Source: an uncultured Planctomycetales bacterium (GTDB lineage Bacteria; Omnitrophota; Gorgyraeia; Zapsychrales; Fredricksoniimonadaceae). From it: DNA of 64,000 bases. The stretch spans positions 10,596 to 74,595 of the forward strand of contig CAYTIW010000007.1 of assembly GCA_964438075.1 (NCBI GenBank). The letters run 5' to 3'. The position numbers were made by a program, and so were the translations under genes. The notes below the pieces were generated by a model. It was not told where the DNA came from, made no database searches, and was given only the letters and a program-made list of their open reading frames with translations. Below, one piece after another: positions 1-3,198 of this stretch; within the stretch, counting starts at the first letter, position 1; each line of letters starts with the position of its first letter.

Positions 1-1
1 T

Positions 2-121
2 ATAGGTCAGTATCCGTCCAAGTGTGCCAGGCGTCAGATGATAGCGTGTTTGCAGCTTTTTGTGATTGAGCTGATCTCGTTCGCGATCTTGGCGCTTTTT
101 TATCATATCTTTTCCGATTAA
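2..121 (+). CDS. Partial 3' end of an F0 c-subunit-like gene (5' end outside the window)
   Basis: The frame is open from the window edge to TAA at 119-121. The translation IGQYPSKCARRQMIACLQLFVIELISFAILALFYHIFSD resembles the c-subunit polar loop (GQYP, cf. RQP) followed by the second helix with a mid-helix Glu (VIELI). It lies 14 nt upstream of the b/delta gene. Only 39 codons are visible. Confidence 0.4.
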   Translation: MGQYPSKCARRQMIACLQLFVIELISFAILALFYHIFSD

Positions 122-135
122 CAAAGGAGCCGGTC

Positions 136-891
136 ATGACGTTCGAATTGATCGTTGGATTCTTCATACTAAATGCCCTTGTTACAGGGGCTATTATTCT
201 GGCCCTGCACTGGGTCTTTGTTTCCAGTGTCGACGGAGCCAAACAAAGGCTGGAACGCGATGCCGAGTCTGCCCGGGCCCGCGAGGCGGAACTTAACCGC
301 AAGATCAGGCAGGCTGATGAAGAGCTAACGGCCCGGAAGAAAGAACTCGACCTTGTCGAACAGCGGATGAAAGGCCAGCTTGAGCAAGAGACCGAAAAAC
401 ACCGGGAAGACCTGGTAAACAAGGCCCGTAGCGAGGCTGAAGAGATCATCGCCAAAGCACAGATAGCGGCTGAAGGTTTGCGCAAGGAGGCTGAGAAACA
501 GATGGAGATAAAGATCATCGATTATTCGACCAGGATACTTAACGAGATCTTTTCTAGAAAGGCCAAAGCGGCTTTTGAAAAAGATCTGGTCGAAGAGTTC
601 GTTTCCCAACTTAAAGAGATCGATATGTCCAAGATCAGCCTCGAGATCAAGAAGGCCGAAGTGGTTACCGCCTGCGGGATATCCGATGAGGACCTGAAAC
701 GTATTGCGGATATGGTCAGGGTAAAGACCGGCCGCGACATAGCTTTGGAGACCAAGGTGTCGGATGAGTTTGTGGCCGGGGTGGTGGTCAAGTTCGGCAG
801 CCTGCATTTGGACGGAAGCGTGCGGAACGCCATTCGGGAATCGGCGTTAGCCCTAAAAGGCGAAGTTGATAAGGGGAATTTACGAAAGTAA
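136..891 (+). CDS. F-type ATPase peripheral-stalk protein, b/delta (OSCP) fusion
   Basis: 251 aa. It has one N-terminal TM helix (ELIVGFFILNALVTGAIILALHWVF) and a long charged coiled coil typical of subunit b (ARSEAEEIIAKAQIAAEGLRKEAEKQ). The C-terminal segment matches the delta/OSCP end (SDEFVAGVVVKFGSLHLDGSVRNAIRE). An AAAGGAG Shine-Dalgarno precedes the ATG. Confidence 0.75.
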   Translation: MTFELIVGFFILNALVTGAIILALHWVFVSSVDGAKQRLERDAESARAREAELNRKIRQADEELTARKKELDLVEQRMKGQLEQETEKHREDLVNKARSEAEEIIAKAQIAAEGLRKEAEKQMEIKIIDYSTRILNEIFSRKAKAAFEKDLVEEFVSQLKEIDMSKISLEIKKAEVVTACGISDEDLKRIADMVRVKTGRDIALETKVSDEFVAGVVVKFGSLHLDGSVRNAIRESALALKGEVDKGNLRK

Positions 892-903
892 AAAGAGCTC
901 GTA

Positions 904-1761
904 ATGGGTAAAGCCAACAAGGTCAAAAGAGAGATGGTGGAGGTCCGTGACTTGGTCGATCTGGTCCAGGTCCTGAAGGATATTGCGGACATGAAGTTCC
1001 ACGATCTGTTTGCCAAACGCGGGGGGTTCCAAAGGTTCGGCGAATCGTTCTCCGAGTTCTTTCGTCTTTTAAAGTATACCGAAGTGGCGCATCCCCTGAT
1101 AACGAATGAGAACCCCAATACCTGCATAGTGGTCATCACAACTGAGGAAGGTTTTGTCGGCGACTTGAACAACAAGGTGGTGGTGCGGGCGATCGAGGAG
1201 CGGGAACATTATCCTGGGGCCATCTTTGTTACAGTGGGCCGCAAGGGCGTGGCCAAGCTCGAGATGATGGGTATCAAGAATGTCAGGACTTTCGAGGAAG
1301 TCGCAGAGCAGGGGATGTACGAAATAGCAGTTCAGCTCAAGGACTTTCTCGTCGAACAGGTCATGCAGGGCAAGATCGGGAAGGTCTTGGTGGTCTACCC
1401 TTGGCCCAAGGACCTGCAGACGGTCAAGTCCAGGGTGGTGAAATTGTTGCCGTGCGAGTTCATCATGCAGCAGCAGACGCAGACGGTCGAGCTTTTCAGC
1501 AAAGTCATTGAGGAATCTGACCCGCTGGAGATCATCGGCTACCTGGCCACGCTCTGGATATCGTCCAAGATCTACGAGATCATGTTCGACACGAGCATTG
1601 CGGCCGTTTCCGCCCAGTCGCAGCAGTTGGAGACCAGCGTCGGCAATGTCCGCAAGGAGGCCATGGCGGTCAAGCTGAAATACCGCAAAGCCCGTAAAGG
1701 TGATATTGACAAGAGCCTTCGGGAAGTCTTTTCTTCGAGGATGATGACGGTAAAGCAATAA
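904..1761 (+). CDS. atpG: F-type ATPase gamma subunit-like protein
   Basis: 285 aa. The N-terminal helix is [27 protein letters not shown]. The central [17 protein letters not shown] matches the gamma VITSDRGLCGG-N segment. The C-terminal helix is [39 protein letters not shown]. It sits between the delta-like and beta genes. Confidence 0.75.
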
Positions 1762-1771
1762 AAAGGAAGCT

Positions 1772-3196
1772 ATGAGCAGCAATACGCAGAATACGATCCA
1801 GAACCGCAAGGCCTCGGGCCGCGTTGTGGCCATCCAGGGGCCGGTGGTGGATGTCGCTTTCCATGACGGAGAGCCGTCGCCAGCCGTTTATGACTGCATT
1901 GAGGTGTGGGCTTATGACGCCAGAAAGATAACGTTGCAGTGCGCCGAGCATTTGGGAAGCGGCCTGGTCAGGTGCATCTCCCTGCAGGACACTTTGAACC
2001 TGCAACAGAATGCGCCTTGTTATTGTACCTATAAACCCATCGCCGTTCCCATCGGGGAAGGCTGTTTTGGACGGGTCATGGACACCTCCGGGCGGCCTTT
2101 GGACAACGGAGGCACCTTCGAGAACTGTCCCAATCTTGTCCCGATACGCCAGATGACCAGGGAAGTGACCTTTGATCTCAAGAGCCGCAAGCGCGAGATC
2201 CCGGAACTGCTGGAGACCGGTATAAAATATATCGACCTTCTTTACCCTCTGATCAAAGGGTCCAAGACCGGGGTCATCGGGGGCGCCGGATGCGGCAAGA
2301 CGGTCATTATCCTGGAGTTGATCAATAATATCGTCAAGGCGCATGGCGGAGCCTGCGTTTTTACCGGTATAGGCGAGCGCATCCGGGAAGGTAATGAGCT
2401 GTATTACGAATTGCACGAGAGCAATCTTCTGCACAAGGTCATGCTGGCTTTCGGGCAGATGGACCAGCCGCCGGGGGCCCGTGCGGAAGTGGTGAATGCC
2501 GGGCTGACCATGGCTGAATATCTTGTCGCCAAGAACAAGGACGTGCTTTTGTTCATGGACAACCTATACCGTTTCGTGCAGGGAGGCCAGGAGGTCTCTA
2601 CTTTGCTGGGCCGAGTTCCGGCGGAAACAGGCTACCAGCCTACCATGGCTTCGGAGGTGAACGGGGTCCAGGAACGCATCCGTTCGATAGATGCAGGCGG
2701 TTCGATAACCGCCATGCAGGCGGTCTACGTCCCGGCCGACGATATGACGGACCCGGCGGTAGTGGCTATTTTTGCGACTTTGGACGGCAATATAGTGCTT
2801 TCGCGCGACCTGGTACAGCGCGGTATGTATCCGGCCATCGACCCTTTACAGAGTTCCTGCACCAATCTGGACGTGGCGGTGGTCGGGCGCCGGCATTATG
2901 ATGTTTCCCAGCAGGTTATCCAGCATTTTAACAAACATAACGCCTTGAAGCGCATTGTAGCGGTCATCGGCATTGAAGAATTGAGCAAGGATGACCAGCT
3001 GGTCTATAAACGCGCCGAGAAACTTTATAACTTCATGACGCAGCCGTTCGCAGTTTCTGAGGTCTTCACCGGTAAAAAAGGTGAGTATGTTGAACTGGAA
3101 GACAATATTGCCGGGTGTGAAAGAATCCTCGCCGGTGATTATGACCACCTCGAAGCCCAGGATTTTTACATGATCGGCAAGGCGCCGAGGATCTGA
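1772..3196 (+). CDS. atpD: F-type ATPase beta subunit
   Basis: 474 aa. It has a beta-type Walker A (GGAGCGKT) and [11 protein letters not shown] with the catalytic Glu. Other beta-type segments are [63 protein letters not shown] and a DELSEED-like [10 protein letters not shown]. Confidence 0.9.
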
Positions 3197-3198
3197 AG

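Follow-up and report, generated by a model that had tools for sequence, protein, structure and literature searches.

A complete F-type ATPase operon of Omnitrophota joined to pseudopilus genes and most likely encoding an ATP-hydrolysing motor

The question raised by the locus described here is what kind of ATPase is encoded where an apparently incomplete F-type gene set runs directly into genes for a pilus or secretion machine. The locus opens a 64,000-nucleotide (nt) stretch of DNA (the window) from contig CAYTIW010000007.1 of an uncultured bacterium that is labelled Planctomycetales and placed by GTDB in the phylum Omnitrophota. A sequence-only reading of the window had described the set as c, b-delta, gamma and beta, with no alpha or epsilon, and had offered either (i) a beta-only rotary or export-type ATPase module associated with the pilus genes or (ii) a rearranged housekeeping atp operon. 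The analysis points instead to a complete F-type ATPase operon joined to pseudopilus/secretion genes that most likely encodes an ATP-hydrolysing motor serving the flanking envelope apparatus (with a probability of roughly 0.8).

The apparent lack of alpha and epsilon is explained by DNA immediately outside of the window. Six metagenome contigs (L001-L006), retrieved by exact-sequence look-up of beta, differ from the window by 2-28 mismatches in overlaps of 5-13 kb (~99.8% identity) and reach 5,970 nt to its 5' side, such that window position 1 corresponds to position 5971 of L001. Genes for alpha, epsilon and a canonical c subunit all reside within 2.2 kb directly 5' of window position 1, with those of alpha and epsilon at 0.35-2.2 kb from the window start and in the same operon (Table 1). 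The full order of the encoded proteins is a giant protein of 13-residue repeats, a 448-residue protein, alpha, epsilon, c, a second c-type protein (c'), b-delta, gamma, beta, GspE, GspF, pseudopilins, PilMN and GspM. The window edge cuts midway through an Omnitrophota F-type ATPase operon that is complete yet non-canonical, and the 'missing' alpha and epsilon are an artefact of this cut. The description of the set as c, b-delta, gamma and beta is correct inside the window and fails beyond its edge, where alpha, epsilon and the true c are found; both atpA and atpC, the presence of which speaks against a beta-only module, are found a short way upstream and belong to the same cluster. On re-reading of the open reading frames (ORFs) of the window, the gene coordinates, the beta motifs and the intergenic gaps of 14, 12, 10 and 2 nt (c'/b-delta/gamma/beta/gspE) given by the sequence-only reading are exact. 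At the last of these junctions, the TGA stop of beta is followed by AG and then by the GspE ATG, with a Shine-Dalgarno-like GAGGA located within the 3' end of beta.

The catalytic head is predicted to be of the alpha3beta3 type and to be joined to a gamma-epsilon stalk; every catalytic residue is retained, as is the arginine-finger motif of alpha. Beta (PF00006, 9.5e-70) scores 537.9 bits to the atpD equivalog model TIGR01039 and passes its cut-off of 462.85; its catalytic motifs, VPADDMTDP among them, are invariant in 38 species, and its DELSEED-like loop reads EELSK(D/E)D. Alpha scores 522-535 bits to atpA models, has a conserved P-loop (GDKxTGKT) and carries the arginine-finger motif SVSRVG in 31 of 32 species. 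Both alpha and beta are ~55% identical to canonical F1 subunits, and a PDB search with beta returns bacterial and mitochondrial F1 beta as the best matches (~453 bits), with the beta of the Mycoplasma mobile G1-ATPase at 341 bits. Gamma is matched over its full length (PF00231, 2e-28) and is strongly diverged from canonical gammas, with 73 bits to TIGR01146 against a cut-off of 194. Epsilon is composed of the N-domain only, without the C-terminal helical domain. The canonical equivalog cut-offs are likewise missed by epsilon (25/67 bits), c (21/44) and b (20/65.5). The alignments of alpha all begin at canonical residue 20-30, leaving ~20 N-terminal residues absent, and the alpha start is just 15 nt from the preceding gene; thus, alpha appears to be without the N-terminal helix that is gripped by canonical delta.

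The c-type subunits are encoded by two adjacent genes. The canonical c subunit has a conserved RNPSAA loop and keeps Glu56 in 37 of 38 species. Its neighbour, c', is a two-helix protein without a Pfam or NCBIfam match; hhalign nonetheless aligns it to the c family end to end (probability 96.4%, E 1.4e-9) with the Glu aligned, and this Glu is replaced in 9 of 37 species. The first ORF of the window, which had been taken as c, is c-related by this profile comparison and is predicted to be the divergent paralogue c' rather than the canonical subunit. Extra full or partial tandem copies of the c gene, besides c', seem present in two relatives (L037 3933-4466; L048 7140-7591).

The stator, as modelled, is a single chain in which b is fused to the C-terminal domain of delta only. 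Pfam OSCP is matched at 4.7e-11 (profile positions 97-168 only), b-type matches are weak, and NCBIfam alt_F1F0_F0_B (TIGR03321) is matched at 2.4e-11, far under its cut-off. The AlphaFold2 (AF2) model of b-delta, with a predicted local distance difference test (pLDDT) score of 84, begins with a continuous helix at residues 3-138 that covers the transmembrane segment and the stalk; a short helix follows, and residues 173-245 fold into an alpha/beta domain. The top match by Foldseek is the b-delta fusion of mycobacteria (9vkp_d, 5.5e-6). Subunit E of V-ATPases is also matched, as are the delta C-terminal domains of Pseudomonas aeruginosa and Escherichia coli (9o19_W and 6oqr_W), which superimpose with a root-mean-square deviation of 1.2 Å over 67-69 residues. 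The N-terminal helical bundle of delta is found in neither the AF2 model nor the Pfam coverage of b-delta. We infer that the delta N-domain and the alpha N-terminus were lost together and that the delta-alpha contact is remodelled.

Subunit a, which provides the proton half-channel and the stator arginine, does not appear to be encoded in or near the cluster, i.e., within ~10 kb. A hydropathy scan of all ORFs of at least 120 residues in 45 loci of ~20 kb finds GspF as the only real gene with at least four predicted transmembrane segments, the rest being antisense artefacts. E. coli AtpB has no tblastn match in 50 loci, which is a weak test; AtpI is absent from the cluster, and Pfam scans of ~45 of the 57 window ORFs of at least 90 residues reveal no atpB, V-ATPase or secretin. 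Several candidates were rejected, including: (i) an a-sized ORF of 250 residues before alpha in the relative L054, which is a one-module paralogue of the 448-residue protein with two terminal helices only, (ii) ORFs 5' of the repeat protein in L035, which encode FGE-sulfatase-domain proteins, and (iii) a minus-strand block at 47.4-59.6 kb of the window, considered as a second ATPase for its V-ATPase-like gene sizes, which instead comprises two Mrp/complex-I-like modules. This block (47460-59558, minus strand) holds two consecutive Mrp-antiporter/complex-I-like sets with NuoB-like and NuoD/C-like (NiFe-hydrogenase-type) subunits. By their gene content, the sets are predicted to form Mbh/Mbx- or Hyf-like ion-translocating complexes, such that the organism would make an ion gradient while the window is without an ordinary ATP synthase.

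The gene arrangement is conserved in related loci. One genome per GTDB species was scanned with a gamma alignment, yielding 42 loci with gamma identities of 55-92%, and synteny was judged by tblastn of 19 L001 proteins, each locus as far as its contig reaches. One identical gene order is found in the 42 GTDB species loci and in one further locus (L007), all of Omnitrophota type. Alpha, epsilon and c are encoded upstream in 34 of the 34 loci reaching that far, and gspE is next after beta in all 37 loci that extend past beta, with a beta-gspE gap of about 1-5 nt in 18 of the 37 and a 3.7 kb insertion in one. The order after beta in the relatives is gspE, gspF, the gene of a Peptidase_MA_2-like protein (in most, not all, related loci), gspG, two pseudopilin-like genes, gspK, pilMN, gspM and a TPR gene. 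The arrangement is also kept in a 535 kb Joint Genome Institute (JGI) contig, in a 415 kb contig and in the distant relative L054 (gamma 37% identical), which is without c' and encodes, in addition, a one-module protein paralogous to the 448-residue one. The earlier proposal that the ATPase genes are co-transcribed with the pilus genes, and dedicated to or co-regulated with them, is supported by the junction being kept in 37 of 37 loci as well as in the relative with the 37% gamma, and the genes are linked at the operon level, probably with translational coupling. The ATPase-pilus linkage is real, deeply conserved and already published (PMC10066038).

Gamma has 411 homologues at E<=1e-5, and at E<=1e-3 it is matched by just 1,056 of 1.84 billion cluster representatives; the named homologues of gamma, like those of b-delta, are all labelled Candidatus Omnitrophica/Omnitrophota. 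The 42 GTDB loci are from metagenome-assembled genomes (MAGs) of Omnitrophota or from MAGs labelled 'uncultured Planctomycetales' that have the same locus. GTDB-representative MAGs titled 'uncultured Planctomycetales bacterium' that carry the Omnitrophota-type locus include L025, L027-L029, L032, L033, L037, L039, L044, L046-L048 and L050. These organism labels on locus-bearing MAGs are probably loose.

By their HMM scores, the genes downstream of beta resemble those of a type II secretion system (T2SS) more than those of a type IVa pilus. They score best to T2SS models: GspG passes its cut-off, and GspE, GspF, GspJ, GspK and GspM are top matches under theirs. The GspE protein matches T2SSE (4.6e-131) and MshEN (2.1e-19) of Pfam and scores 588 bits to the GspE and 577 bits to the PilB model of NCBIfam, both slightly under cut-off. 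A PilM-PilN fusion occupies the place of GspL, and no secretin, GspC or prepilin peptidase is found in the window. MshEN is a module that binds cyclic di-GMP. GspE of some relatives (L007 12353-14524 and L054 12355-14649) is 723-764 residues long and has an added PilZ domain, the Pfam match of which is faint in L054. The MshEN/PilZ domains of GspE hint at cyclic di-GMP control of the apparatus. The plus-strand array is closed by the top-scoring terminator-like site of positions 1-16000 (15217-15251). At the end of the operon (12693-18023), the PMT_2 and GT2 glycosyltransferase genes are followed by a convergent gene on the other strand for an STT3-like oligosaccharyltransferase of 843 residues. 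These genes of protein-glycosylation type may serve to modify the pilin or fibre.

Two further proteins are encoded on the 5' side of alpha. In the giant repeat protein, a 13-residue unit, G(I/V)NWxD(L/I)xxxSxx, recurs with strict periodicity (161 of 161 intervals are exactly 13 residues long in L052), and the chain ends in a conserved non-repeat C-terminal domain of ~250 residues (...VVIKTWFESEE). The protein is at least 2,354 residues long in the species of the window and 8,087 residues long in GCA_964572155.1, and matches no Pfam family. Copies are located at L052 1-7065, L001 2-2458, L053 1-9992 and L054 1-5014; the gene is always two genes before alpha, and the L054 copy shares both the repeat and the C-terminal ending. 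By its periodicity, the protein could be a very long solenoid fibre. The 448-residue protein is predicted to be periplasmic and membrane-anchored, with a signal or anchor helix at the N-terminus and a transmembrane helix at the C-terminus. AF2 models it confidently (pLDDT 87) as two modules that each combine a beta-sandwich and a helical hairpin, and Foldseek against the PDB returns nothing below E 0.07. None of its 79 homologues has a functional name, and the organism labels are Omnitrophica/Omnitrophota with one exception (Elusimicrobia).

The enzyme is proposed to run most likely as an ATP-hydrolysing rotary motor and not as a chemiosmotic synthase, because no subunit a is encoded nearby, epsilon is without the inhibitory C-terminal helices and the delta-alpha contact appears remodelled. 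The motor would be made together with, and would serve, the flanking apparatus, i.e., the giant repeat fibre, the periplasmic anchor protein and the pseudopilus. A more specific and tentative idea is that the a-less F1-c-ring ATPase is a built-in part of an envelope-spanning surface machine in which rotation, or a stalled rotor, is used mechanically. The parts of such a machine would be the T2SS-like pseudopilus, the periplasmic anchor and a giant fibre of up to ~600 13-residue repeats; in place of subunit a, the ring would have c' or the anchor protein as its partner, and the output would be fibre or pilus deployment, attachment or predation instead of ion translocation. If true, this would be a new use of the F-type motor, parallel to the F1-like X0 ATPases of Mycoplasma and of another architecture.

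Several points weigh against an ATP-driven motor. The upstream genes come from near-identical metagenome contigs and not from the record of the window itself, and the motor role would be carried by analogy alone. A lone atpB elsewhere in the genome is possible, the absence of a holding within ~10 kb of the cluster, and the conserved carboxylate of c is expected of an ion-translocating ring and has no explanation without subunit a. As the window encodes two Mbh/Mrp-like ion-pumping modules, the cell also needs some ATP synthase. The enzyme could, instead, be a housekeeping chemiosmotic F1Fo of a rearranged operon, in which a is encoded elsewhere or is too diverged and the pilus genes are adjacent without functional coupling. 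This alternative is unlikely. In its favour, atp operons are split in some other bacteria, the NCBIfam atpA/atpD equivalog cut-offs are passed by alpha and beta, the RNP loop and the canonically spaced Glu of c are retained in 37 of 38 species, and Mbh/Mrp-like ion-pumping complexes share the window. Against it, no candidate for a is found within ~10 kb in 45 loci, and gamma, epsilon, c and b-delta fall far under every equivalog cut-off. Neither the N-domain of delta nor the N-terminus of alpha is present, and the link to gspE, often of 1-5 nt, is strict across gamma identities of 37-92%. Furthermore, a separate 'respiratory' clade is described in Omnitrophota (Seymour et al. 2023), and V/A-type ATPases are common in the phylum. 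With no a, a shortened stator and strict pilus synteny, the suggestion of simply a rearranged housekeeping atp operon is not favoured.

The beta-only alternative, in which a beta homohexamer would act with gamma and b-delta as a rotary or export ATPase in the manner of FliI, FliJ and FliH, is refuted by the upstream sequence. FliH, FliI and FliJ are distant structural homologues of b-delta, beta and gamma, and the window alone is without an alpha or epsilon ORF; however, alpha and epsilon are encoded upstream in all 34 loci reaching that far, alpha passes TIGR00962 with its SVSRVG arginine finger conserved, and beta scores 538 bits to atpD versus ~186 bits to FliI/SctN models (cut-offs of 380-620; best FliI, 186 versus 619). 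The profile searches proposed for beta place it as an F-type atpD, with the N-ATPase and FliI/SctN models not reached. That the cluster truly belongs, through common ancestry or transfer, to the type 2/type 3 F1-like X0 ATPases of Mycoplasma is quite improbable. Both systems are non-respiratory and adjoin surface-machinery genes, yet alpha scores 391 bits to glide_MMOB1660 (cut-off 600) and 283 bits to MSC_0619 (520) versus 522-535 to atpA, beta scores 414 bits to the glide model (850) and 380 bits to MSC_0618 (570) versus 538 to atpD, and F1 beta is closer in the PDB (453 bits) than M. mobile G1 beta (341 bits). The Mycoplasma clusters are, in addition, seven-gene sets with X0 proteins and without c or b/delta, whereas the cluster described here has c, c' and b-delta and no X0. 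An ATP-hydrolysing motor of the flanking apparatus, as preferred here, would place the locus among the few cases outside of Mycoplasma in which an F-type ATPase is apparently recruited beyond chemiosmosis, and the locus occurs widely in Omnitrophota, a phylum whose members are ultra-small and probably predatory or dependent on a host. The apparently a-less complex, the carboxylate of c, the c paralogue, the matched shortening of stator and alpha, and the flanking proteins are concrete structural targets.

Table 1. Features of the ATPase-pseudopilus cluster on the upstream contig (L001) and in the window
Sequence	Position	Strand	Feature	Evidence
L001	2-2458		Giant repeat protein, runs off contig	
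L001	2462-3808		448-residue protein	No family match
L001	3824-5290		Alpha, 488 residues	PF00006, PF00306; TIGR00962 521.6 bits vs cut-off 484.45
L001	5354-5623		Epsilon, 89 residues, N-terminal beta-sandwich only	PF02823 29.9 bits vs 27
L001	5639-5857		c subunit, 72 residues, RNP loop, Glu56	PF00137 31.3 bits vs 24
L001	5861-6091		c', 76 residues; C-terminus is the window's first ORF	
Window	2-121	+	c' 3' end, last 40 codons; stop TAA 119-121; gene start 110 nt 5' of window	
Window	136-891	+	b-delta peripheral stalk, 251 residues	Pfam OSCP C-terminal part, AF2, Foldseek
Window	904-1761	+	Gamma, central stalk, 285 residues	PF00231
Window	1772-3196	+	Beta, catalytic subunit of predicted alpha3beta3 F1 head, 474 residues; stop TGA 3194-3196	PF00006, TIGR01039
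Window	3199-4944	+	GspE/PilB-type secretion/pilus assembly ATPase, 581 residues, MshEN N-domain	Pfam T2SSE, MshEN
Window	5040-6251	+	GspF/PilC inner-membrane platform protein	Pfam T2SSF 2.5e-59; top NCBIfam match GspF
Window	6248-7090	+	Membrane-anchored Peptidase_MA_2-like protein, HExxH	PF13485 5.4e-13
Window	7087-7494	+	GspG major pseudopilin	NCBIfam GspG 154.6 bits vs cut-off 88.85
Window	7472-7933	+	Prepilin-like protein, 153 residues	
Window	7930-8553	+	GspJ-like pseudopilin	GspJ model top match, below cut-off
Window	8555-9583	+	GspK-like pseudopilin	GspK model top match, below cut-off
Window	9650-11149	+	PilM-PilN fusion	Pfam PilM_2, PilN
Window	11161-11796	+	GspM/PilO-like protein	Pfam T2SSM_b, PilO
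Window	11738-12637	+	TPR protein	Pfam TPR
Window	12693-14354	+	PMT_2-type glycosyltransferase	Pfam
Window	14366-15172	+	GT2 glycosyltransferase, last gene of same-strand array	Pfam
Window	15217-15251	.	Strong bidirectional hairpin terminator, 16-bp stem, T-runs on both strands	

Other features of the window are set apart from the cluster. An adjacent pair of aconitase-family genes (956 and 493 residues) is located at 32713-37045. The segment at 41000-46000 has a GC content of 38-44% compared to ~53% elsewhere, the ORFs at 41986-42837, 43531-44094 and 44113-44895 have no Pfam match, and this low-GC island may be horizontally acquired. At the 3' end of the window, an ORF of 360 residues (62866-63948, minus strand) has a reverse-transcriptase domain (RVT_1, 1.3e-16).

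Loci of this type are known. Omnitrophota loci that join a 'symbiotic', non-respiratory F-type ATPase to a type IVa pilus are described by Seymour et al. 2023 (PMC10066038), with the F-type ATPase and pilus gene sets no more than 10 kb apart in 57 of 66 contigs, the 'symbiotic' clade set apart from a 'respiratory' one, and the label 'type 2/3' in use. The locus in the window is of this type, with membership of the alpha clade assigned by synteny only: the published loci are likewise from Omnitrophota, have F-type alpha/beta adjoining a GspE/PilB-GspF/PilC-pilin-PilMN cluster with large ORFs nearby, and show no essential difference from the locus of the window. In the part of the source data available (three genomes visible), genome 221 has the KEGG Orthology (KO) entries K02111 and K02112 and no KOs for a, b, c, delta, epsilon or gamma, which fits a pattern of alpha and beta alone, although three genomes do not suffice for statistics. 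The portions of Seymour et al. 2023 that were accessible do not mention the missing a, c', the stator of b and a delta C-terminal domain, the giant protein of 13-residue repeats or the 448-residue periplasmic protein. A 2026 preprint (10.64898/2026.06.07.730766) reports alpha and beta in 125 of 176 complete genomes and gamma in 30 of 176 at a strict threshold, a low count that fits the diverged gamma seen here, and finds V/A-type ATPase subunits in most Gorgyraeia.

Compared to the canonical F1Fo (atpIBEFHAGDC), the cluster shares alpha, beta, gamma, the epsilon N-domain, c with its carboxylate and a b-type stalk. By contrast, the gene order is A-C-E-E'-F/H-G-D without a or AtpI in the cluster, delta is represented by its C-terminal part only and is fused to b, alpha and epsilon are shortened, a paralogue of c is added, and the whole is embedded between giant-protein and secretion genes. 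The N-ATPases (atpDCQRBEFAG) are similarly encoded by a divergent F-type operon, and among NCBIfam models the architecture of b-delta is matched best by their long b, which ends in a delta-like part; however, the cluster has a different gene order and no AtpQ, AtpR or a-subunit genes, and N-ATPase identity was rejected as the alt_F1F0 models are far from reached (beta 448/752, alpha 491/750, b 44/225 and c 14/131). The mycobacterial b-delta proteins (9vkp, 7nkd and 7y5b) are also single chains of a b-type helix and delta. These are ~445 residues long with a full delta, including the N-terminal alpha-binding domain, whereas the protein encoded in the window has 251 residues and the delta C-terminal part only, and is closer in outline to subunit E of V/A-ATPases. 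The FliH/FliI/FliJ set of the type III secretion system (T3SS) differs in that a separate alpha is present here, in place of a homohexamer.

The best functional analogy is found in the F1-like X0 ATPases of Mycoplasma. Both systems comprise an extra, non-respiratory F1-type set of alpha, beta, gamma and epsilon encoded with a cell-surface system. The Mycoplasma F1-like X0 clusters are composed of seven genes and include 3- and 12-helix X0 proteins, without c or b/delta (Beven 2012, PMC3369863); the cluster of the window has c, c' and b-delta and no such polytopic partner. A host-dependent lifestyle is known for Mycoplasma, whereas for Omnitrophota it is a proposal. In Mycoplasma, the surface system MIB-MIP depends on a type 3 F-ATPase (Berlureau 2026, PMC12994834), and the G1 of M. 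mobile, one of the F1-like X0 ATPases, powers gliding (PMC3369863, PMC12994834).

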